From a virus: a stretch of DNA of 64,000 nucleotides. Position numbers and translations under genes: made by a program. This document shows, piece after piece, positions 6,976-64,000 of the stretch (the first letter of the stretch is position 1; every line of letters begins with the position of its first letter). The notes below the pieces were generated by a model that had not been told where the DNA came from, ran no database searches, and worked only from the letters and a program-made list of their open reading frames with translations. The stretch lies in the UHGV virus genome UHGV-1558314. One strand, written 5' to 3'.

Positions 6976-7080
6976 TTGTTTTGATGCAAAATGCAAAACA
7001 ATATAAAATTGTTTTGATGCAAAATGCAAAACAATATAAAATTGTTTTGATGCAAAATGCAAAACAATATGTTGTTTTGA
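6976..7080. repeat. 33-bp direct repeat array (about 3.3 copies)
   Basis: ttgttttgatgcaaaatgcaaaacaatataaaa repeated head to tail; unit is partly palindromic (ttgttttg...caaaacaa); immediately upstream of the Cys-rich gene. Confidence 0.8.
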
Positions 7081-25473: not shown

Positions 25474-25496
25474 ATGTAGAGATTTTTGTAGTTTGT

Positions 25497-25592
25497 ATCA
25501 ATTGCATTCTATATCAATTGCATTCTATATCAATTGCATTCTATATCAATTGCATTCTATATCAATTGCATTCTATATCAATTGTATCTTGT
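25497..25592. repeat. 16-bp tandem repeat array (5 perfect plus degenerate copies)
   Basis: atcaattgcattctat repeated head to tail; unit contains the palindrome caattg. Confidence 0.85.
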
Positions 25593-25820
25593 ATCAAATA
25601 CATTATATTGATATATGATAATTGTACTACAAAAATCCCAAATTTGCACACTTTGATAATCAAAAGTGCAAACAAAATTCAAAGTTATATTGTACATCAT
25701 AAAGTGCAAATTTGCACTTTATGATGCTAAAATGCCACAATTTATAACTCTGCAAAATGTCTGCATAAAATAAGCAGCTTAGATTGCTAAGCTGCTGTCA
25801 TTGTATGCATGCAGTCACTG

Positions 25821-26759: not shown

Positions 26760-26830
26760 GCAATACGACAGGACTCGAACCTGCGACCTCGGATTGGACG
26801 TCCGCGCTCTTACCGCTGAGCTACGTATTC
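26760..26830 (-). tRNA. tRNA-like, possibly Gly(TCC); non-canonical anticodon arm
   Basis: Canonical D-arm TAGCTCAGCGGTAAGAGC and T-arm GCAGG-TTCGAGT-CCTGT, but the anticodon stem pairs poorly (loop CGTCCAA) and there is a G-G at 1:72. May be a degenerate tRNA. Confidence 0.4.
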
Positions 26831-26920
26831 TTATCAATTGACTGCACTGCAATGCAATCAATCGCGCCAATGACACCTGACGCATAATTGCAGTTATGCG
26901 TAACAATTCAAATGTCATTG

Positions 26921-26993
26921 AGCCAACTGCAGGAATCGAACCTGTAACCTGCTGATTACAAATCAGCTGCTCTGCCAATTGAGCTAAGTTGGC
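26921..26993 (-). tRNA. tRNA-Thr (anticodon TGT)
   Basis: Folded by hand: acceptor GCCAACT/AGTTGGC, D-arm GCTC-AATTGGCA-GAGC, anticodon stem GCTGA/TCAGC with loop TTTGTAA, T-loop TTCGATT. Confidence 0.8.
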
Positions 26994-27075
26994 ATAAAGT
27001 CGTTGGGCCATTGCAACCCAAACCTATCATCTTTGCATAGCCAAAGATGCAAGCGCTCTCTTACACCACGACTTG

Positions 27076-27147
27076 TAGCCGAACTTGGAGTCGAACCAAG
27101 CTTTCGAGAATGAAAATCTCGCGTCCTAACCGATAGACGAAACGGCC
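27076..27147 (-). tRNA. tRNA-Glu (anticodon TTC)
   Basis: D-arm TTCGTCTATCGGTTAGGAC resembles bacterial tRNA-Glu; anticodon stem CGAGA/TCTCG with loop TTTTCAT; T-arm CTTGG-TTCGACT-CCAAG; two T-T mismatches at the base of the acceptor stem. Confidence 0.6.
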
Positions 27148-27330
27148 AAGAGCAGTTCAAGTCTGCAGCATTGAACTGCGGAAGCAATGCCTGTACGGGC
27201 AACCAATTGTGCAGATACAGCGACATTGCAAAATCACACCGAACCAAGTTTGTGGCTCTTCTGTCTCATAAAAACAGTAATCATTACACTTGGCACCAAT
27301 GATTCTGATGTAAAAATCGGTGTGTTATGC

Positions 27331-27413
27331 GGAAAGCGGAGGTGTCGATCCCCATACGCGAACGTACTCACGGTTTTCAAGACCGGATTTGCAGCCGTGC
27401 AAATTCACTTTCC
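27331..27413 (-). tRNA. tRNA-Ser-like (anticodon TGA), long variable arm, atypical D-arm and T-loop
   Basis: Acceptor GGAAAGT/GCTTTCC; anticodon arm CCGGTCTTGAAAACCG identical to E. coli tRNA-Ser(UGA); variable-arm hairpin GTACG-TTCG-CGTAT; T-loop ATCGACA. Confidence 0.45.
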
Positions 27414-27608
27414 ATAAAACATTGCATAAGCATTCTTATCTCTTGATGAGACCAAGTAGCTAATTTGGCAAGTTTGTTATATCTATCGTGACTGTTGCAG
27501 TTTATTTGTCACTCAATACACAAAATTTTCGAACATTCATTGACAGCACTGCAATATCGCTTTTTTAAGCTCAGCCATCAATGTATTTATGCAATGTATA
27601 ACAATTCG

Positions 27609-27690
27609 TAGCCAAACCGGGACTTGAACCCAGACTCCTAATGGAACAACATTTTGAGTGTTGCGTGTCTACCAATTCCACCATTTGGCC
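27609..27690 (-). tRNA. tRNA-Leu (anticodon CAA)
   Basis: Acceptor GGCCAAA/TTTGGCT, D-arm GTG-GAATTGGTAGA-CAC typical of tRNA-Leu, anticodon stem CAACA/TGTTG with loop CTCAAAA, long variable arm, T-loop TTCAAGT. Confidence 0.8.
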
Positions 27691-27794
27691 ATTTGCAAAT
27701 GCAAGCTGTTTCATAACTGTTTGCATTTGCTGTCGTAAATTTGTATTGTTTAGCCTCTAAAACATGATTCAACTAATCAAAAACCAGAGAATTG

Positions 27795-27867
27795 TCGAGA
27801 ATGTGCGATTTGAACGCCAATTATACGTCCCAAACGTATCGTGTTACCGGATTACACTACATTCTCG
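27795..27867 (-). tRNA. tRNA-Pro (anticodon TGG)
   Basis: Perfect anticodon stem ATACG/CGTAT with loop TTTGGGA; D-loop AATCCGGTAA; T-loop TTCAAAT; ends uncertain by 1 nt. Confidence 0.65.
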
Positions 27868-27874
27868 TTAATTG

Positions 27875-27946
27875 TTGAACCGTCTGGACTCGAACCAGAA
27901 ATGGCTGAACCAAAATCAGCTGTGTTACCGATTACACCACGATTCA
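27875..27946 (-). tRNA. tRNA-Gln (anticodon TTG)
   Basis: Acceptor TGAATCG/CGGTTCA (one G-T), D-arm GTGT-AATCGGTA-ACAC, anticodon stem GCTGA/TCAGC with loop TTTTGGT, T-arm TCTGG-TTCGAGT-CCAGA. Confidence 0.75.
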
Positions 27947-50461: not shown

Positions 50462-50812
50462 TTACAAATATGAGTACAGTTTGTTCATAACTCGTTCAAT
50501 TGCAAATTCAACACCATATTGCAACAACTGTTCAGTGCTAAATGTCTTTGCTGCATGTGCATGCGCAACAATATGCTTTGTCTGTGCATATAATATCCAA
50601 GTATCAGTTGGCCTGTCATAAGTTACTGTCAGTCTACATGTTTGCAACACAAACTCTTGACTAAAGTATTCTCTTCGCCAAAACTCTGGTTCTGCAATAT
50701 GCAAATCAAGCCAAGCAAACTCAAACAGAATTTGTTTAAGTTGACGTTGATGCTTACGTTCAGCACGATATGAGTTGCTGAATAGCCATTTAATGATGTT
50801 CATCATTTGCAA
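50462..50812 (-). CDS. hypothetical protein
   Basis: 116-aa ORF. Confidence 0.4.
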   Translation of the reverse strand: MQMMNIIKWLFSNSYRAERKHQRQLKQILFEFAWLDLHIAEPEFWRREYFSQEFVLQTCRLTVTYDRPTDTWILYAQTKHIVAHAHAAKTFSTEQLLQYGVEFAIERVMNKLYSYL

Positions 50813-51519
50813 TCATTATGCTGAGTATGAATTGCGTTGCCCTGTGAATCCAAGCGAATCGCAGTTTGCATTGCGACTTCAGATTGTGTTTGTTCTGCTT
50901 GACGAGCTCTTTGAAGTCCACCTCCAGGGTGACATGTGTAAAATCTATCAAAGTCAGTGCCAAGCTGTTCAGCAACAGACAACATGATGTTATCACCAAT
51001 GAGCTGAGATGCTAGCAGAGAATTCGTCGGAATTCGTGGATTGCGTGAGTCCTCGTCAATTGCTGGCAATGATACAAGCAAGTCTGCCCAAGCATTCATA
51101 TCAGTGACCTTGCCACCAGCAAAGTTAATGCCGATGATTTGGCAATTCGGTGCAAGCAATTCACGATGTTCACGAAGATATGTCATTGCAGTTGCAAGTT
51201 CAGATGTGTTGCCTGTTTTGCTGAATGCTACAATAACATCATTGTTTCGAATCATACCAAAGTCACCATGCATTGCATGTACTGCATCAAAGAACGCAGC
51301 ATCAAGTGAAATTGAATAGCATGTTGCAGCAAGTTTTTCACAGCAATGCACATTTTTGCCAATGCCAGTGAACAATACTTTGCCATCAGACTTCAATGCA
51401 TTTGCAATAATGTCTGCTGCAATGCCAAGAACATCATATTGCGCATCTGAAATGTTGTTGTGCCATGCTACAAGCGACTCGACTGATGCAGCAATGCCTT
51501 TGTGTACAAGTGTTTTCAT
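50803..51519 (-). CDS. SIS-domain sugar-phosphate isomerase (arabinose-5-phosphate isomerase-like)
   Basis: DGKVLFTGIGKNVHCCEKLAAT and VIVAFSKTGNTSEL match the KdsD/KpsF-type SIS signature; no CBS domains. Confidence 0.7.
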   Translation of the reverse strand: MKTLVHKGIAASVESLVAWHNNISDAQYDVLGIAADIIANALKSDGKVLFTGIGKNVHCCEKLAATCYSISLDAAFFDAVHAMHGDFGMIRNNDVIVAFSKTGNTSELATAMTYLREHRELLAPNCQIIGINFAGGKVTDMNAWADLLVSLPAIDEDSRNPRIPTNSLLASQLIGDNIMLSVAEQLGTDFDRFYTCHPGGGLQRARQAEQTQSEVAMQTAIRLDSQGNAIHTQHNDCK

Positions 51520-55474: not shown

Positions 55475-56494
55475 CTATTGCTTATGCCAGCCATATGATG
55501 CCTGACCAGCATCATACACTTCTACAAAACCATGGTCGTACATAAAATCTTCATTACGAGTGCCCTTGCCCCCATTAGTACCAAGAATACGGTCTGCACC
55601 ATGCATAAGCAGCATATTATTTGTGATATGTTGCTTTGTCAGCATATTGAACCAATGTTTGCTATATGACAAGCCAAGACCATCAAAGCCCAGCTTTGTG
55701 TACACGCCACCATCAAACTTGCTCAAATCACAATACGACAACACAGATTCAGGGTCATATGTCTTGATAAAGTGCTTGAATATGCGTTCGGCGCCACCTA
55801 CGACTTTTGTTGCTGCACAAAGACGCAGTAGTTCATACTGATATCGCTTATTGTATCGTGGACGACCAAATGTCATAAGCTGATGTATGACATAGCCGCC
55901 AAGCAATTCAAGTGGATGGCCTTCAATCAACGCAAGATTGATAAAATTGCCTGAGCACTTGCCTTGCAAATGATGTTCAATCAAAAATTGATTTGCAGTA
56001 TACTTGTCAATTTCAACAACTTTAAGCTTGCGAGCATATACAATCTTTGATTTGTCTACGATTTGATGCTTGATGTGATTGATAACTTTCTTGGCGTCAT
56101 CCCAATCCCACACATGAATGCAATGAAAGCCTGCAGCTTTTGCAATGTCTGTTTTCTTTGCATGAATATCACAAGGCAAATGCGAATCTTTTGCAGCATG
56201 CATAAATAGATGCTCAAATGAATGCGTGCTATTATGTGAAAATGTGGGATTGATGTTGATGACGATGTTGTCATGTCTAAAATCGAAGACTTCATCACCA
56301 ATAACAAAGTTGCGCTCAAAATCTATACCGACATGTTTGAGTAATACTTGATGCCACACATCTTTATAGGCTGATTCAAGATTGCTTAGCTCATCACAGT
56401 TTGCAATATTTTTGTAACGTTGAATAGCAGCATCAAAGTCAAGATTGACTTCAGCGTAGTCTGCATTTTTATCGTAGTGAAATTTTGAGCTCAT
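55475..56494 (-). CDS. paralog family member C (conserved domain without the repeat array, extra inserted region)
   Basis: NINPTFSHNST, CIHVWDWDD, FVEVYDAGQ; FLIEHHLQG region between them; start taken at MSSKFHYD (ATG at 56494). Confidence 0.55.
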   Translation of the reverse strand: MSSKFHYDKNADYAEVNLDFDAAIQRYKNIANCDELSNLESAYKDVWHQVLLKHVGIDFERNFVIGDEVFDFRHDNIVININPTFSHNSTHSFEHLFMHAAKDSHLPCDIHAKKTDIAKAAGFHCIHVWDWDDAKKVINHIKHQIVDKSKIVYARKLKVVEIDKYTANQFLIEHHLQGKCSGNFINLALIEGHPLELLGGYVIHQLMTFGRPRYNKRYQYELLRLCAATKVVGGAERIFKHFIKTYDPESVLSYCDLSKFDGGVYTKLGFDGLGLSYSKHWFNMLTKQHITNNMLLMHGADRILGTNGGKGTRNEDFMYDHGFVEVYDAGQASYGWHKQ

Positions 56495-56598
56495 GTGTAT
56501 AATTTGTATGAGATTATTGTACAACATGCAAATGCATGTTGCATTTGATGCAAAGTACTGCGTACACAACATAAAGTACAAGTTTGCTTTTGACAGAC

Positions 56599-57621
56599 TT
56601 ACTTTGTATTGCTACGCGTCATTGTTAAATGACCGCAATCATACACATCAACTTCTGTTTTGCCAAGCATGCATGTATGACAATTTATTTTGAAATCTAC
56701 TGCAGTGTAGTCAGGATAGTTTAGCGGAGATTCTTTTGACAAATCAATTTCAATTGTGTCAGTAGTTTTAAGTTGTTCAGTGCCTGCAATGATATCTGCA
56801 ATGAGATTGATAACATCTTCTTGTGAATCCCAGTCAAACACAGTTATGCAACGATAGCCTGCATCAAGCGCAAGTTTTGTTTTGTTGTAATGGTATTGCG
56901 CATCAAGTGGCTCATTTTTGTCAGACAATTTTGTTGCATATCGAAACCCAAGCGTGCTGTTATGCGATACGGTAGGATTGATTTCTACAAGCAATTTATG
57001 TGTGCCATCAATATCATATGACAAATCATATGAATAACGTTGAATTCTAACTGCGTCAAGCTGCATGTCAATGTGTAAATGACGCAATATTATTGCATGC
57101 CAATGCTTGTTGATGCCCGATATTATATTTGCAGCTTCCATGCATTTTGGATGCATTACAAAATACGGCACGCCAAAGCGTTCTTGTATTGTTTTGTATG
57201 CTTTTGCATTAGAATCTTTACCATAAATGCTGCCATAACGCTTAAGCTTTGTAGCAATCAACTTGTCTATGTCACCCATAGCATTGCCAAAGCGCTCAAT
57301 CTTATGCTGTTTAATGGCATCTTTGTCGCCAAACATATGACCATATCGAGACATCTTTGTTGCTTTGACTGCATTGATGTTGCAACCTGCACCATATCGA
57401 GCATGCATAGTTTGCATGCGTTTAGCAATGTGCTCTTGTGATTGCTTAATTTGTTCGGTGCCAAATTTGCGCAAATTATTGATACGCTTAGTAACATCTT
57501 GTTTAATGACTGAATGCGTGGTTGTTCGCTTGCCAAGTCTTACACATTCTGTAGTTTTGAGCAATGTATCTCGTTCAAACTCAATTTGTGCAATTCGTGC
57601 AACAATTTCTTTAGATGTCAT
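56599..57621 (-). CDS. paralog family member D
   Basis: Repeats KxxRYG...GD plus LLVEINPTVSHNST, CITVFDWD, VDVYDCGH; start taken at MTSKEIVARI (ATG at 57621). Confidence 0.6.
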   Translation of the reverse strand: MTSKEIVARIAQIEFERDTLLKTTECVRLGKRTTTHSVIKQDVTKRINNLRKFGTEQIKQSQEHIAKRMQTMHARYGAGCNINAVKATKMSRYGHMFGDKDAIKQHKIERFGNAMGDIDKLIATKLKRYGSIYGKDSNAKAYKTIQERFGVPYFVMHPKCMEAANIISGINKHWHAIILRHLHIDMQLDAVRIQRYSYDLSYDIDGTHKLLVEINPTVSHNSTLGFRYATKLSDKNEPLDAQYHYNKTKLALDAGYRCITVFDWDSQEDVINLIADIIAGTEQLKTTDTIEIDLSKESPLNYPDYTAVDFKINCHTCMLGKTEVDVYDCGHLTMTRSNTK

Positions 57622-57706
57622 TTTTAATAGCATATTGATAATTATACAACATACAAATGAGTTTTGCATTTTTGATGTAGCAATTGCTTGCACAGTTTGC
57701 AAAAAA

Positions 57707-57966: not shown

Positions 57967-59682
57967 TCAAATCCAGCCGTAGTCGCTGTGGATAGCGAAG
58001 GTGAGGTAAGCCAACTCGGGATACATACCCGTCTCCGCGAGAGCGTAATCCGACTCAATCAGCAACTTTGGCGCTGCTGTTCCTTCGGCTGTTAATTCCA
58101 CACTTGATGCAAGGTCATATGGCATGAATACACATCCCTGGTTGACATTCTCTACGTCAACACCGTCAGCAGTCTTGTTCGTACGAAGAACGAGAACAGT
58201 GTTGTCGTTCAGCGGCTGCTTAGGATTGCAATAGATTTTAATGCCAGCAAGGTCACCTGCGTAATACAGGTTTTTGTTGTCCTGTACCAGCGTATTGTCA
58301 AGAGCTGCAACAAAGTTTTTCTGAGCCTTAATTGCAACCAAGGCAATCGTATTGACCACAGCAGCATCACCAGCACCGAAACGCGACAGGTTGCCAATGA
58401 TTGCCGAAGCAGCCAGGATACGCGTTGCGATACGAGCCTGACGGGTAATCTGGTTCTCAGCCGAGCTGTTCGATTCAGCGTTCGGAACCATGCCGAATTC
58501 AGCCGTACGGTCTACACCCATCTTGTCGACAAATGCAGGAGCTTGGAATTCCGAGAATGCCTTGGCAGTCGAACCAGCGTAGCCAATGTACAAGTTCAGG
58601 TTGTAGCCCTGAGCAGCCAACAGCTGAGCATGTGTCGTAACACCAAGTGCACGCATGCGCTTCAGACCATTGTCATTGATTGACTGCGTGATTTCATTCT
58701 GCATTGCATTCTTGATGATTGCAACTGCATCCAAACCGCGAGCACGGAGGTCCTTAACCTGGCGACGAGTCAGAGCGCCCCAAGTCTGGTACGTCTTAAC
58801 TTCGATAGCCTTTGAGAAGGTGCGGAGCTCCAGCATGTTCGGGTTGCCAGCCTCAGCCTCAGAACGAGACATTGGGTTGCCGTCAAGGTCATCCATTGCA
58901 GCGAAGCCGTGGATGTGTTCGTCACCAGCCGAAACCAGGTCGAACATAACCTCAGTCATACCAGTCAGCAAGTCAGTTACAGCACCTGCAGCGTCAACCG
59001 AGTAGATTTTCGATGCAGCCATTGCAACATCAGCCAACGACTTGTCAGGAGCAACAGTCATTGCGCCACCTGCGCCTACAGTGTACACGCCCTCATTGCG
59101 AACTACGAGGTAGCCTGCAACACGCGATACCTGTACAAACGTTACTTTGGCAGCAAGCTCACCAGCAGCTGAACCGCCGATGTACAGAACTTGACCCTTC
59201 TTGAGGCCACGAACCATTGTCTGCGAAGCAACATTGTACAGTTCCTTCCACTTGATGAGGAAGTAGCGAGGACCCTTGGCAACATTCAGCTTGCCGCCAC
59301 CATACACGTAGTCTACATAGTCCAGCTGAACCAGCGGGCTGTAAACAGGAATGGTCGGGAGCAGGTCGAACAGAATCGTGTTGGCTGCGATGTTCATGTT
59401 CAGAGCCAGAACATTGGCAGCTACATCGATTGAACCACGCTTACGCGACGGGTCATGGAACTGTGCTTGCGTGCCTGGGTCAGCAGGGAAAGCGACCGGA
59501 CCTACGCCATTGAGATTCTGCGAATACGTCGACTCAAACGACTCGTTCATATACTGAACGTTCTGAGCGATTGATGCGAGCAGATACTTCTTAGCGGGCG
59601 AGAGCTTGGAGTCAAACGACTCATCAAGAACAGGGCCCCACTTTTTCAGCAATGCATCAATCTGTGTACGTTTTGCGTTCAT
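57967..59682 (-). CDS. major capsid protein (T4 gp23-like)
   Basis: Several segments resemble T4 gp23 as recalled from memory (DALLKKWGPVLDES vs ELLNKWKPLLEGEG; ...IPVYSPLVQLDYVDYVYG; FSKAIEVKTYQ...AVAIIKNAMQNEI); nucleotide composition visibly more GC-rich than neighbours, consistent with a highly expressed gene. Confidence 0.8.
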   Translation of the reverse strand: MNAKRTQIDALLKKWGPVLDESFDSKLSPAKKYLLASIAQNVQYMNESFESTYSQNLNGVGPVAFPADPGTQAQFHDPSRKRGSIDVAANVLALNMNIAANTILFDLLPTIPVYSPLVQLDYVDYVYGGGKLNVAKGPRYFLIKWKELYNVASQTMVRGLKKGQVLYIGGSAAGELAAKVTFVQVSRVAGYLVVRNEGVYTVGAGGAMTVAPDKSLADVAMAASKIYSVDAAGAVTDLLTGMTEVMFDLVSAGDEHIHGFAAMDDLDGNPMSRSEAEAGNPNMLELRTFSKAIEVKTYQTWGALTRRQVKDLRARGLDAVAIIKNAMQNEITQSINDNGLKRMRALGVTTHAQLLAAQGYNLNLYIGYAGSTAKAFSEFQAPAFVDKMGVDRTAEFGMVPNAESNSSAENQITRQARIATRILAASAIIGNLSRFGAGDAAVVNTIALVAIKAQKNFVAALDNTLVQDNKNLYYAGDLAGIKIYCNPKQPLNDNTVLVLRTNKTADGVDVENVNQGCVFMPYDLASSVELTAEGTAAPKLLIESDYALAETGMYPELAYLTFAIHSDYGWI

Positions 59683-59770: not shown

Positions 59771-61060
59771 TCATTTTTCAATCTTTTTGAGCAATGCATG
59801 ACCGCAATCATAGACTTCGACGAAGCCTGAAGCAATCAATGAGTCAACATCTATAGAAGACGTTCGTATAATATGTTCGTGTGTCTTGATATTGTATAGA
59901 TGACACTGAACCCATGTTTTGACGACTTCATAATTTGGATACAATCGAGGGTCTTCTTTTGACAAATCAAGTTCTATGACATCATCAGTTTTGAGCTGCT
60001 CAGTTTTGTTTATGACATCTCTAATGTGCAGCAACATATCATATCTACAATCCCAGTCAAATATTGTTATACATCGATAGCCATTGCGTGCTGCAACATC
60101 TGTTTTGAATTTGTGAGCATACGCAGGTTTGGCGTCATTATCAACAGAATGCCCAGTTATGTAACCAAAGCCCTTTGTTGCATTGTGTGTAACAGTTGGA
60201 TTGATTTCAATTACAACAGCATCTTTTCGCAAATCATATAACAAGTTCTCAATAGGATGCTCAGTAACAAAATCAAGATTGCAAGAATGTTTCAAATCCC
60301 ATTGCCACGACATATTGATGTTTGATGTCAACCTTGCAGATGCTTGCGGCAATTGCAATGCATGTTCTACACCATAGCGTTCACGTAATGTTGCATGAGC
60401 CCTTTGCATATTTTGCATTGCGGGACCCCAATGCTCAAATTTTGTAGCATTTATCTTTGCAATTTTGTCTGGTAGCTTATTTGTACTATCTACACCATAT
60501 TTAATAAGACAACTGATGCGAATATTGTATTGTCGTTTTATTCGAGAATGTGACGTAGCACATCTACTAAATCGTTCAAATGGTGTTGATGCAATCAATG
60601 CATCTCGTTCTGACTCAAGAGCTTTGACATGTTCAAGCACTTCTGCTGGTACATTATCATAGTCAATCACATATTGCTGACGTGGTTGCGTTACATGAGT
60701 TTTGCCGTGTGTCTTAAGCTTATTGATTTGTATGCTATACTTTCTGCGTATATGTGGATGTCTTGATGCATCAGATTGCGCAATTTCATGCTCTCGTTGC
60801 TCTTCAAGTTTAGCTATTTGCTCAACAATAGCTGGTTCAATGTCTGGTTTGTCTGATATGACTATGTTTTTAAGCTCATCAAGACGCTTGTTGAGATATT
60901 TGACACGTCTTGTATATGTTATCTTTGCAACTTGATGGTTTGTATGATGCTTGCCTACTTGCTGTTCTGGTTGATTCAGCGTGTCATCAAGGCGTTGCTT
61001 AGCGAGCTCAAATTCATTATCAAGCCATGCTTTATGCGCATCAAATTCATCTTGTGTCAT
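59771..61060 (-). CDS. paralog family member E
   Basis: N-terminal coiled segment plus VIEINPTVTHNAT, CITIFDWD, FVEVYDCGH. Confidence 0.6.
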   Translation of the reverse strand: MTQDEFDAHKAWLDNEFELAKQRLDDTLNQPEQQVGKHHTNHQVAKITYTRRVKYLNKRLDELKNIVISDKPDIEPAIVEQIAKLEEQREHEIAQSDASRHPHIRRKYSIQINKLKTHGKTHVTQPRQQYVIDYDNVPAEVLEHVKALESERDALIASTPFERFSRCATSHSRIKRQYNIRISCLIKYGVDSTNKLPDKIAKINATKFEHWGPAMQNMQRAHATLRERYGVEHALQLPQASARLTSNINMSWQWDLKHSCNLDFVTEHPIENLLYDLRKDAVVIEINPTVTHNATKGFGYITGHSVDNDAKPAYAHKFKTDVAARNGYRCITIFDWDCRYDMLLHIRDVINKTEQLKTDDVIELDLSKEDPRLYPNYEVVKTWVQCHLYNIKTHEHIIRTSSIDVDSLIASGFVEVYDCGHALLKKIEK

Positions 61061-61127
61061 ATGTGTGTGTAGTGCTTGTTAATCATGTTATATATCATAT
61101 GACAAATTACTACTTTGCATATAACAA

Positions 61128-61154
61128 AAAAGAAGCCAAGTCGTTTTGACTTGG
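61128..61154 (-). terminator. rho-independent terminator
   Basis: gaagccaagtc / gacttggcttc preceded by a6 on the plus strand (T-run on minus). Confidence 0.55.
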
Positions 61155-61189
61155 CTTCAAATTATTCTAACTTATTGATAGTTAATAAG

Positions 61190-61765
61190 TTAAAATTGAG
61201 AACCTACGACACGTGGCACTGCAAGTTCGCTGGTAAGAACGGCTTGACAAGTGTAAATGTCGTCACTATTCTTGTCATGTGAATCGACTGCGCTGATAGG
61301 ACCCTTAGGGAATCCATTCTTGTACGACGTTACTCTCCAGGCTGTTCCAACCTGATTATTTTCAACGAGAATCCAAGAACCCACATAGTTTTTCTTGAGA
61401 CCCATGGCTCCCGTGAGAGGATTCCTGCGTTTCGCATTCCAACTTTGGAATGCATTGTAAATCACAGGGTCATTGGTGTCTGGTCCATGCAAGTTCAGAT
61501 TCATTGTGATAGTCAGGTTGTGAATGTTGCTGACTGTCAATGCTGAGAACTGACGAGACTGATTTTGCGCAACTTTTTGTGAAACCACATCAGGCGCATT
61601 GTCAAGTGTGCCCAAACCTGAAATTGACTGAATTTGCTCATCAATTGTATCTGGAATCACAACGCCTGCAGGTGGCATAAGTGTGAGCTCGAACAATGAA
61701 CTGAACACGGGTTCAGCATATTCGGCAGTCACTTCGCTGTTTTTGATATGCGGTAACTTCGGCAT
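61190..61765 (-). CDS. hypothetical virion-associated protein
   Basis: 191-aa ORF in the structural neighbourhood; no confident match. Confidence 0.45.
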   Translation of the reverse strand: MPKLPHIKNSEVTAEYAEPVFSSLFELTLMPPAGVVIPDTIDEQIQSISGLGTLDNAPDVVSQKVAQNQSRQFSALTVSNIHNLTITMNLNLHGPDTNDPVIYNAFQSWNAKRRNPLTGAMGLKKNYVGSWILVENNQVGTAWRVTSYKNGFPKGPISAVDSHDKNSDDIYTCQAVLTSELAVPRVVGSQF

Positions 61766-61806
61766 GATTGTAATGTGTTATTAAATTGTTCTTGTTTTGT
61801 TATGCG

Positions 61807-62556
61807 TCATCGTACAGTGAATGACTTATCATCATCTTCTGTAGTAGTCGGGTCATCAATTACATCGTGGCCAATGCCTGACTCTGGTTCTGGTTCTGGT
61901 TCCGGTTCCGGTTCCGGTTCTGGTTCTGGTTCCGGTTCTGGTTCCGGTTCTGGTTCCGGTTCTGGTTCCGGTTCTGGTTCCGGTTCTGGTTCAGGTTCTG
62001 GTTCCGGTTCCGGTTCTGGTTCTGGTTCCGGTTCTGGTTCCGGCTTGGGCTCTGGCTTGGGCTCTGGCTTGGGCTTCGATGAATAATCAAACATCTTATG
62101 AATCCATTTGCACCACCATTTGCGACATACATGTGTGCCATCATGATAATACGCTTGCAGCTCCATTGGAATTGCATGATATGCTTTGTCATGTGACATA
62201 CCTTTGAATACTCGCAAGTACACATAGCACAAGCAATATGCAATGTAGTACATAAGCGGTGATGCAAGCAGCCACCACCAGCTAAGCACATTGCATGCTG
62301 CAAGCACAATAAGTACAAGCAACGTCGCAAGTGTTACGAAGATGAATTGCTTTGCATGCACAGCTTCATGCTTCAATGTCTCAGAATATCTACTAAGTGT
62401 GTCATCATATGACTTATCACTTCTTATGAAGCACATTGCACACAACGACATTGCATAATAATGTGAAAATGGAATGTATGGCTGGTCGATGACAAGCATT
62501 GGTCCAGCAAACCACAGTCGCCACTGAGATTTCTTTGGCAGTGTTGCAGTTTTCAT
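61807..62556 (-). CDS. membrane protein with HExxH metallopeptidase-like motif and C-terminal (EP)n repeat
   Basis: HEAVHAKQ motif, hydrophobic segments, and about 60 residues of KPEPEPEP... encoded by a hexanucleotide repeat. Confidence 0.5.
61883..62085. repeat. hexanucleotide simple-sequence repeat (ggttc[ct])n inside a CDS
   Basis: About 200 bp of ggttctggttccggttcc... encoding (EP)n on the minus strand; the plus-strand GS-repeat ORF is its frame artefact. Confidence 0.85.
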
Positions 62557-62619
62557 AAAATGATGTTTATTGTTGATGATGAAGACTGAAGAGCTTTGGC
62601 TCTTCAGTCTATCAATTTG

Positions 62620-64000
62620 CTACTCTGCAGATGCGCCTTGCAGTGACAATGTTGTACGATGTACACCAATTCGAATGCCTTGAGCATTGATAATTTCAGT
62701 GTCAAGTACAATGAATCCGCGAGCAATCGTTTCATCATCATTGTTGCTGCTATCACAGACATTCGTGTACGAAACTGCGCCACCGGCTGCAACGATGCCA
62801 TCCATGAAATTGTCTGCTTTAGTCTTAACCTGCAAACGAACATTTGCAGTGTTTCGCTTGTACTGGGCAGACTTCAAGTATGGCTCGATGTTGTCAGCGA
62901 CGTAGATGAGCAACTCGAGATTTTCGATGTAGCTGAATGCGCTGGTGTAAGCTACTTGTGCAGAACGAGATGTCAGCATTGTGATGACGCCTTGGTCTGA
63001 ACGAGCAAGCATATTCCAACCTGCAGGTTCAAGGTCATCCATATCAGACCCTTCACCTTGTGAGACAATCATGTCAATGTCGGTTACGCCAACACCAGAC
63101 AGTGGCCACTCATCACCAGCAACGACGTCAAAGACATGCTTGCCTGCTTCTATATGCTTTCTCATGAAGACATTCGACAAGATACCTGTTGCAGGAATCG
63201 TCATATCATCAATGCCATCATTGTAGCGAACATTGGCTACATATGTGATGAACGGTGCGCCATCAGTTTGACCTGCGAAGCTGAACAACTTGCTGTATGG
63301 TTTATCGGTGTTACCACCTGCAGCACAGTACTTAGACTCAATTGGGTCACCTGCATTGTCCTTGAAGTACGGGTCAGTTGAGCGGAACAAGTCATACTTG
63401 GTTGGCAGAGCAGAGAATGCGATTGCACGTTTTGAATCATTGCAAATCTTTGCAAACTCGTACTTTTGATTTGCTGCAATGTATGTCTTGAATGGGTCAA
63501 CTACGTAACGCCATTGACATTGATTGTGGTCCATCAAGCTACGATAAACGCCGCCTGAAATGAGAGCTTGCAGTACTTCTGTCTGACGTGCAGATGTGCC
63601 ATCAACAAATTGAGTTGCACGAAGAGCTACGCCATGCAGATATGCGCCCTTGAAGAACTTAACTTGGTCAACAAGCTTCGTCAATGACCAAACAGACGCC
63701 TGCGAGGCGTACTTCATCATTGAGCCATCTGCAAGTTCAAATTCGCCTTCAGCACCCGCAGCTTTGTATGCCAATGCACCAGTGAATTGATATTCAATCA
63801 ACACTTTGTTTTCTGCAAATGCATCGTAGACATTCTTCTTCTCAAGTGGCGACAAATCAGCTTCAGTGATTGTGATTGGCATGCCACCATACTTGAGCGG
63901 CTTATCCAACGGCAGACCATTAGAATCATATTCAACAAGGTCACCACCATATGAAATTGTCTCACCTGCAGCTCTTGCTTTACGAGCTTTCGTTGATGAA
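62620..64000 (-). CDS. hypothetical structural protein, 5'-partial at window edge
   Basis: ORF-track start at 63909 is a TTG codon and the reading frame stays open upstream to the window end. Confidence 0.5.
   Translation of the reverse strand, partial: SSTKARKARAAGETISYGGDLVEYDSNGLPLDKPLKYGGMPITITEADLSPLEKKNVYDAFAENKVLIEYQFTGALAYKAAGAEGEFELADGSMMKYASQASVWSLTKLVDQVKFFKGAYLHGVALRATQFVDGTSARQTEVLQALISGGVYRSLMDHNQCQWRYVVDPFKTYIAANQKYEFAKICNDSKRAIAFSALPTKYDLFRSTDPYFKDNAGDPIESKYCAAGGNTDKPYSKLFSFAGQTDGAPFITYVANVRYNDGIDDMTIPATGILSNVFMRKHIEAGKHVFDVVAGDEWPLSGVGVTDIDMIVSQGEGSDMDDLEPAGWNMLARSDQGVITMLTSRSAQVAYTSAFSYIENLELLIYVADNIEPYLKSAQYKRNTANVRLQVKTKADNFMDGIVAAGGAVSYTNVCDSSNNDDETIARGFIVLDTEIINAQGIRIGVHRTTLSLQGASAE

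Follow-up and report, generated by a model that had tools for sequence, protein, structure and literature searches.

Gluzincins of clan MA carry an HExxH motif and a downstream glutamate that serves as the third zinc ligand, both placed on helices, and the membrane peptidases of families M48 and M56 combine an HExxH, membrane helices, and an ExxA motif. In HtpX of Escherichia coli (NC_000913; M48B), HEISH lies at residue 139, followed by two transmembrane segments and EFHAD at residue 222. BlaR1 and MecR1 (M56) have additional transmembrane helices and sensor domains, and selecase, projannalysin, and proabylysin are soluble minigluzincins. Long alternations of proline with charged residues are known from other proteins: the proline-rich region of TonB is a periplasmic polyproline-II rod in which Glu-Pro (EP) precedes Lys-Pro (KP) (PMC10771500), and procyclin (PARP) of Trypanosoma has a long (EP)n run. 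Here we describe a gene at 61807..62556 on the minus strand of a 64,000-nucleotide stretch of the virus genome UHGV-1558314 (the window), whose 249-residue product joins an N-terminal domain laid out like the first group of proteins to an EP/KP tract resembling those of the second.

In the explanation that we prefer, with a probability of about 0.55, the product is a late accessory membrane protein of zincin type, belonging to family PHROG 15610 and carrying an EP/KP spacer that varies in length by slippage, followed by an acidic end. Its elements are listed below, including those seen in AlphaFold2 (AF2) models.

61807..62556, minus strand: coding sequence of the 249-aa protein (ATG start; stop codon 61807..61809)
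62422..62499, minus strand: N-terminal beta-sheet region, aa 20-45 (family motif IPFxGxxA...F.R; AF2 strands; conserved columns)
62356..62370, minus strand: HEAVH, aa 63-67, part of the family motif NHExIHxxQ (H63 and H67 as putative zinc ligands, E64 as putative catalytic residue)
62287..62346, minus strand: hydrophobic helix 1, aa 71-90 (hydropathy; AF2 helix, continuous with the HExxH helix)
62206..62277, minus strand: hydrophobic helix 2, aa 94-117, after the Trp-rich turn SWWW (hydropathy; AF2 helix)
62146..62184, minus strand: "glutamate helix," aa 125-137, with ExxA (E132, A135; E132 the putative third zinc ligand; AF2 helix 130-137)
61882..62076, minus strand: (KP)4(EP)28E tract, aa 161-225, 195 nt, a length-polymorphic hexamer/dodecamer repeat (Tandem Repeats Finder, codon listing, seven alleles)
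61810..61881, minus strand: conserved acidic C-terminal 24 residues (allele comparison; predicted disordered)
61775..62086, plus strand: spurious (GS)n open reading frame (ORF), the reverse complement of the repeat
61860..62330, minus strand: second ORF (NQNR...), a by-product of the repeat

The ORF, its HEAVH motif, and two hydrophobic segments (Kyte-Doolittle 19-residue means up to 2.66) thus agree with the initial annotation, which had been made from the sequence without database searches. The EP frame is the only one continuous with the conserved N-terminal domain and C-terminal end, in all seven alleles of the gene that we compared. The plus-strand Gly-Ser ORF has no conserved flanking protein sequence and lies opposite a conserved protein, and it had rightly been dismissed as an artifact of the repeat.

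A divergent member of PHROG 15610

A HMMER search with residues 1-160 against 1.84 billion cluster representatives returned 113 proteins at E <= 1e-3, nearly all of them 125-150 aa long and aligning to window residues 20-156. The window protein itself matches phrog_15610, annotated as "protease," at E = 1.9e-7 (aa 20-74 plus a second stretch), and the same profile is matched by 47 of 48 aligned relatives, with a best E value of 4.8e-38. In alignments of 48 to 106 members, E64, H67, Q70, Y107, and E132 are invariant (Q70 is elsewhere graded as at least 90%), while conservation is 90% or higher for H63, Y126, and A135; of the 116 family proteins retrieved, 114 contain HExxH. The family consensus reads IPFxGxxA...NHExIHxxQ, then two hydrophobic helices with an SWWW turn, then AYxxISFExEAY, and the window protein retains H63, E64, H67, Q70, Y126, E132, and A135 of these motifs. 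Judged by profile match and shared motifs, the N-terminal domain is a divergent member of PHROG 15610, a relationship missed in the first reading.

What the window protein shares with the family is the homologous N-terminal domain with both motifs, a phage-borne gene, a place in late modules, and Bacteroidota hosts. It differs in that identity to members beyond its own cluster reaches 35% at most, and it carries a 19-residue extension at the N terminus (unless the start is miscalled) and an 89-residue C-terminal addition, made up of the EP/KP tract and the acidic end, that nearly all members lack. Because Met20, the alternative start at 62499, aligns exactly with the start methionine of family members, and because three of the few amino acid differences among alleles (K8N, F16L, and G18R) fall within the first 19 codons, translation may in fact begin at 62499 and not at 62556. 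Among family members, only P0007 (255 aa) has a comparable extension. This extension was acquired independently and consists of a coiled coil, then PAPEPEPDPDPENP, then an acidic, Cys-containing end. A search for related loci with P0007 found none, and the same search with P0005 found one.

A few family members are short, at 102-113 aa; in these, HExxH and ExxA are separated by only 41-45 residues with one hydrophobic helix, compared with 59-79 residues in the rest.

L013 3998-4306: short form of the crAss-like phage cr56_1, gp74 (YP_010112332.1, 102 aa)
P0128, P0131-P0133, and P0147: further short forms

Although one hydrophobic helix fewer is present, both motifs are retained, which suggests that the core is a scaffold of about 100 residues into which a hairpin has been inserted in most members.

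Beyond PHROG, the family is sparsely annotated. Pfam had no family for any of 48 members at E <= 0.01, Peptidase_M48 and Peptidase_M56 included, NCBIfam had nothing for the window N-terminal domain, and a sequence-profile search of PDB gave no chain at E <= 10 except a spurious Frizzled match. Weak matches to Tmemb_185A, FA_desaturase, and SepX in Pfam and NCBIfam were sub-threshold or compositional and were not considered meaningful. PADLOC defense models matched neither the window protein nor six of seven relatives, and in the seventh, P0007, they matched coiled-coil regions only. Our literature search found no experimental characterization of the family, and searches on EP repeats in phages and on the crAss "protease" likewise returned nothing specific.

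A gluzincin-like layout, probably at the membrane

Modeling with the family alignment in AF2 gave a mean predicted local distance difference test (pLDDT) score of 83.7 and a predicted template modeling score (pTM) of 0.77, with a sheet, a long HExxH helix, a hairpin, and a helix bearing E132. The strands span residues 13-17, 20-25, 35-38, and 41-45 (pLDDT about 90); the full-length model has a low-confidence helix at aa 8-15 in place of the first of them. Helix 54-87 (pLDDT 92-98) carries HExxH and runs on into the first hydrophobic segment, and it is followed by a return helix at 93-117 and by short helices, one with E132. Both HExxH and the putative third-ligand glutamate therefore lie on helices in the model, as expected of gluzincins, and the succession of HExxH, membrane helices, and ExxA is that of M48 and M56, although a cytoplasm-facing site is indicated by the positive-inside rule only. 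From motif conservation and the predicted structure, the N-terminal domain is probably a membrane-anchored zincin-type domain of gluzincin-like character. We picture a minimal zincin-type scaffold in which a beta-sheet is joined by an HExxHxxQ helix and, further downstream, by a "glutamate helix" with ExxA; the hydrophobic hairpin between the two motif helices would hold the putative zinc site at the cytoplasmic face of the inner membrane, as in HtpX. The most likely activity would be that of a zinc-dependent protease acting, late in infection, on a host or phage protein close to the membrane.

The order of elements is the same as in HtpX, with 69 residues from histidine to glutamate in the window protein versus 83 in HtpX. 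Nevertheless, HtpX, BlaR1/MecR1, and the soluble minigluzincins gave no significant match and show no sequence similarity to the window protein, which is much smaller than HtpX and BlaR1/MecR1, lacks their additional transmembrane helices and sensor domains, and has ExxAY where HtpX/BlaR1-type gluzincins have ExxAD. Aligning the family profile to E. coli HtpX with hhalign gave a probability of 0.05, a weak test given the single-sequence target. On these sequence comparisons, the likeness to HtpX and BlaR1 is one of layout only, and filing the protein in M48 or M56 is unsupported.

One caveat applies to a zinc peptidase: position E134, near-invariant in the family, is glutamine in all alleles of the window lineage. 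Zincins do recur among the weak fold matches obtained with Foldseek, all of them nonsignificant, with BlaR1 taking the top three places and M1 aminopeptidase, selecase, projannalysin, proabylysin, ArdC, Spartan, and RseP the lower ones. In BFVD the fold recurs in uncharacterized phage proteins (TM-score 0.70, E = 2e-7), with a weak tail of SprT-, IrrE-, and metallopeptidase-like proteins.

An EP/KP tract of variable length

The tract spans 195 nt and 65 residues, four KP followed by 28 EP and a closing E, written in AAGCCN and GAACCR hexamers, close to the 200 bp and 60 residues first estimated. Tandem Repeats Finder places an array at 61883..62043 with a period of 6 or 12 (about 26 hexamer or 13 dodecamer copies; score, 232-267) and an adjoining one at 62042..62075 (GGCTTGGGCTCT x2.8). 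The EP-tract array is the largest tandem array within the 64-kb window and is far beyond chance. The repeat had been placed at the C terminus; it does lie near the end of the protein, but it is not itself the terminus, since the 24 conserved, acidic nonrepeat residues come after it.

Repeat counts were compared among relatives, as the initial annotation had proposed. One cluster in a large protein database holds four near-identical proteins of 193, 205, 209, and 227 aa, a 231-aa allele lies on the 174.6-kb IMG/VR viral contig L002, and a further metagenome contig, L016, carries a 219-aa allele. Together with the window, these seven alleles have tracts of 10, 21, 24, 34, 42, 46, and 65 residues, seven lengths that are all in frame, and total protein lengths differ by multiples of two residues only, that is, by multiples of 6 nt. 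The sequence on either side of the tract is nearly constant. The N-terminal domain is identical at 153-157 of 160 positions, the final 23 residues differ by at most one amino acid change (D to N, K to N, or V to A), and the junction ahead of GIGH reads SG, MSG, or simply G. In the three alleles for which DNA sequence was at hand, the ratio of nonsynonymous to synonymous substitution rates (dN/dS) in the N-terminal domain is 0.06-0.24, and the gene is therefore under purifying selection.

The alleles come from metagenome assemblies, and their tract lengths were read from assembled sequence. Contig names of MEGAHIT k141 style and sources such as Logan and IMG/VR, together with a window tract longer (195 nt) than one typical read, could suggest that the polymorphism, or the window length itself, is a short-read assembly artifact in a low-complexity repeat; collapse or expansion in assembly was also the objection raised at the outset. 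We regard this as highly improbable. The arrays are imperfect, and their longest perfect period-12 runs (71 nt in the window, 44 nt in L002, and 28 nt in L001) are shorter than usual reads or k-mers. The synonymous units also differ, with GAACCA/GAACCG in the window, GAACCT/GAACCG in L002, and mixed AAGCCN/GAGCCN in L001; collapse or expansion of one array cannot yield such differences in the alternating proline codon and in the KP positions, which instead point to independent expansions and contractions in different lineages. Finally, the frame and the conserved C-terminal end are kept at all seven lengths. That the length differences reflect real replication slippage of 6- and 12-nt units, generating in-frame length variants, is therefore well supported by the allele sequences, in keeping with the earlier suggestion of a slippage-prone repeat and a length-variable linker.

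Because the unit is 6 nt, slippage keeps the reading frame and produces length variation rather than phase variation; the seven alleles differ from one another in steps of 6 nt, and none shows the on/off behavior of a phase-variable contingency locus. Tract length appears weakly constrained. A more ambitious explanation has two joined parts. In the first, the tract would be an adaptive, tunable tether, with slippage setting the distance of the acidic C-terminal peptide from the membrane or the reach of the protease, and with hypervariability maintained by selection from host strains or defenses, which would make the gene a "contingency" locus for protein length in a jumbo phage of the gut. In the second, PHROG 15610 would comprise unrecognized membrane-embedded minimal gluzincins with a conserved late role across Bacteroidota phages, the crAss-like phages included. 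We consider the combination quite unlikely.

The window also contains a cluster of six tRNA genes (26760-27946, minus strand), for Gly(tcc), Thr(tgt), Glu(ttc), Leu(caa), Pro(tgg), and Gln(ttg). Two of these tRNAs, for Glu and Pro, read the codons of the repeat (GAA and CCA/CCG), which is probably a coincidence.

Predicted topology and conformation of the tail

Averaged over 106 members, there are 7.0 lysines and arginines ahead of the first transmembrane segment, 7.3 after the second, and 0.06 in the turn. By the positive-inside rule, this distribution places both termini in the cytoplasm, and the active site and the EP tail are accordingly predicted to be cytoplasmic. In the full-length AF2 model, the tract is an extended coil, neither helix nor strand, with a pLDDT of 82-84. 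Polyproline-II helices rise by about 3.1 Å per residue, and in that conformation the tracts of the alleles would reach lengths of roughly 3 to 20 nm. In our preferred explanation, the zincin-type domain would have been fused, in the phage lineage of the window only, to a polyanionic (KP)n(EP)m tract acting as an extended polyproline-II-like spacer, and the conserved acidic 24-residue end would be a possible interaction peptide. We also considered docking of that peptide on the catalytic domain, similar to the zymogen-like autoinhibition of minigluzincins; this is unsupported, as the last ~24 residues are disordered in the model, with a pLDDT below 50.

The initial annotation had likened the tail to EP-rich linkers in TonB-like and cell-surface proteins. 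The analogy stands for the composition and physical nature of the tract, since both are alternations of Glu-Pro and Lys-Pro expected to form an extended polyproline-II-like rod, but it lacks support for location and family. Compared with the TonB linker, the order here is reversed (KP, then EP), EP strongly predominates, the tract is predicted to be cytoplasmic, and its length is hypervariable; the protein also has neither a TonB C-terminal domain (TonB_C) or other Pfam domain nor an ExbB-type anchor. The same points bear on the idea that the tail is periplasmic and forms a TonB/TolA-like, envelope-spanning rod that brings the C-terminal peptide to a partner in the outer membrane or the peptidoglycan. 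The polyproline-II rods that EP/KP repeats form in TonB (PMC10771500), the predicted extended tract, and a probable host that is Gram negative and so has a periplasm would all suit such a rod. We nonetheless find it very unlikely, given the charge distribution over 106 members, the missing domains, a reversed and almost purely acidic tract (4 KP versus 28 EP), and a 6.5-fold length range (10-65 residues) that fits poorly with a fixed periplasmic distance. Procyclin offers a likeness in its long (EP)n run, and Pfam PF05887 (Trypan_PARP) matches at 40.6 bits. This score is far below the family cutoff of 100 bits, and the window protein has no signal peptide and no glycosylphosphatidylinositol signal; we rejected the match as compositional only, and the proteins are unrelated.

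Genomic context and probable late expression

The gene lies between two tail genes on the same strand, with the following features around it.

62620..64000, minus strand: tail sheath gene, upstream neighbor, 3' part, running off the window (phrog_34521, 8.7e-59; 973 aa in L002)
62584..62609, minus strand: hairpin between the sheath stop codon and the EP-tract gene (free energy [dG], -21.7 kcal/mol; z = -5.9; no U-run)
61190..61765, minus strand: probable tail tube gene, directly downstream (phrog_32623, 6.7e-28)
61132..61158, minus strand: intrinsic terminator after the tube gene (11-bp stem with 6 G-C pairs, then TTTTTTGTTA)

The sheath ORF had been listed with a TTG start, which raised the question of stop-codon recoding; this was ruled out, as the frame runs off the window end without a stop. 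The hairpin keeps a stem of 11-12 bp, with a CAAA loop in the window and UUCG in L001. Because it has no U-run, it is probably not a full terminator and may instead attenuate or stabilize the sheath mRNA. From the order of hairpin, gene, tube gene, and terminator, we infer that the sheath, EP-tract, and tube genes form one late transcription unit. A tube homolog directly follows the sheath gene in Chryseobacterium phage MA9V-2, and an unrelated gene separates the two in Sphingomonas phage PAU, which suggests a lineage-specific insertion at a junction that tolerates insertions. The EP-tract gene is a real gene and would be a late-expressed accessory inserted at the sheath-tube junction.

Placement inside a sheath-tube transcription unit, and between the portal and capsid genes in crAss-like phages, might point to a virion or tail-assembly component with the EP tract as a structural spacer in the particle. 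A virion role was also implied by the initial annotation, and we found no support for it. A hydrophobic two-helix hairpin is atypical of tail structural proteins, the direct adjacency of sheath and tube genes in MA9V-2 shows the gene to be dispensable for such a tail architecture, family members also occur in replication modules, and there is no structural PHROG match, so that we give this explanation only a very slim chance.

The capsid and tube proteins most resemble those of the jumbo myoviruses Chryseobacterium phage MA9V, Tenacibaculum phage PTm1, Prevotella Lak phages, and Sphingomonas phage PAU, with identities of 31-39%; apart from PAU, Bacteroidota jumbo phages account for most of the closest relatives of the capsid protein. 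Using tblastn with a family member, we obtained 127 deposited phage records, in which all host or organism genera named are Bacteroidota (Bacteroides, Phocaeicola, Parabacteroides, Prevotella, including its Lak megaphages, and Riemerella); crAss-like phages are also among these records, and four crAss-like genomes annotate the gene as "protease." No close relatives were found among deposited phages, either by megablast with 61000-64000 or by tblastn of the N-terminal domain. A scan of genome contigs found no prophage copy, so the host assignment relies on the family and on the capsid-protein relatives only. By these similarities, the phage is probably a PAU/PTm1-like myovirus of about 175 kb that infects gut Bacteroidota.

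Among distant members, family genes follow the portal gene in crAss-like phages and the terminase gene in Bacteroides and Phocaeicola phages and in L009, and one lies between DNA polymerase and RecA genes. In four of seven loci, representing about two phage lineages, a member heads a lysis cassette with a glycoside hydrolase family 19 (GH19) endolysin.

L003 8001-9906: lysis cassette with a PHROG 15610 member
L010 6001-7913: lysis cassette with a PHROG 15610 member
L004 and L007: equivalent cassettes

These cassettes, from Bacteroidota-type phages or prophages, run from the PHROG 15610 member through a coiled-coil protein with one transmembrane segment to the GH19 endolysin, and those of L003 and L010 also include a u-spanin-like protein with a lipobox and a C-terminal transmembrane segment. 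Judged by neighboring genes, the contexts are mostly late modules and indicate no single function.

With no other obvious holin in the cassettes, the family could instead be a nonenzymatic lysis-timing or holin/antiholin-like membrane protein, in which a two-helix hairpin with both termini inside is the functional part and a metal bound by histidine and glutamate is structural or regulatory. The size and two-transmembrane topology resemble those of class II holins, and the LydA holin is among the weak BFVD matches. We consider this explanation unlikely. The near-invariant HExxHxxQ and ExxA in more than 100 divergent members are a catalytic zinc-site signature rather than that of a holin, and they persist in the short forms with one helix. 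The gene is not beside lysis genes in crAss-like, Bacteroides, or Phocaeicola phages or in the window, adjacency to an endolysin is confined to some distant members, and there is no holin PHROG or Pfam match.

Several other features of the window are recorded here as side observations.

59771-61060, minus strand: gene between the tube and major capsid genes
57967-59682, minus strand: major capsid gene (phrog_28442/phrog_138)
56599-57702: unassigned 367-aa ORF between the capsid and HNH genes
55475-56581, minus strand: homing/HNH endonuclease gene just downstream of the major capsid gene (phrog_3339, 7.4e-42)
50803-51519, minus strand: auxiliary gene resembling arabinose-5-phosphate/phosphoheptose isomerases (phrog_5670, 2e-28)
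6976-7070 and 25486-25608: two perfect tandem arrays that look intergenic, with 2.9 copies of 33 nt and 5.6 copies of 16 nt (TATCAATTGCATTCTA), respectively

The product of 59771-61060 is 29% identical to that of L002 11430-12821, in a relative that is otherwise about 96-99% identical. The two proteins have the same first few and last ~20 residues, and there is a weak DUF7487 match; a mobile or homing-endonuclease-like gene seems to have been swapped here. A phosphoheptose isomerase is encoded in Sphingomonas phage PAU as well, where a few genes separate it from the tube gene. The tandem repeats may be regulatory or origin-like iterons.

Implications

The protein combines a known but uncharacterized phage family with a familiar type of low-complexity linker and is not a new kind of system. 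It is a clean case of in-frame microsatellite slippage in a phage gene, joined to an uncharacterized domain; this is useful for annotation and as a strain-typing marker, and it will not surprise a specialist. In a protein that is otherwise constant, the alleles also provide a natural series of linker lengths, from 10 to 65 residues, with which the importance of length could be tested. The crAss-like and Lak phages are among the most abundant viruses of the human gut. If the N-terminal domain is indeed a zinc peptidase at the membrane face, it would represent a conserved, unstudied late function of Bacteroidota phages, including these two groups.

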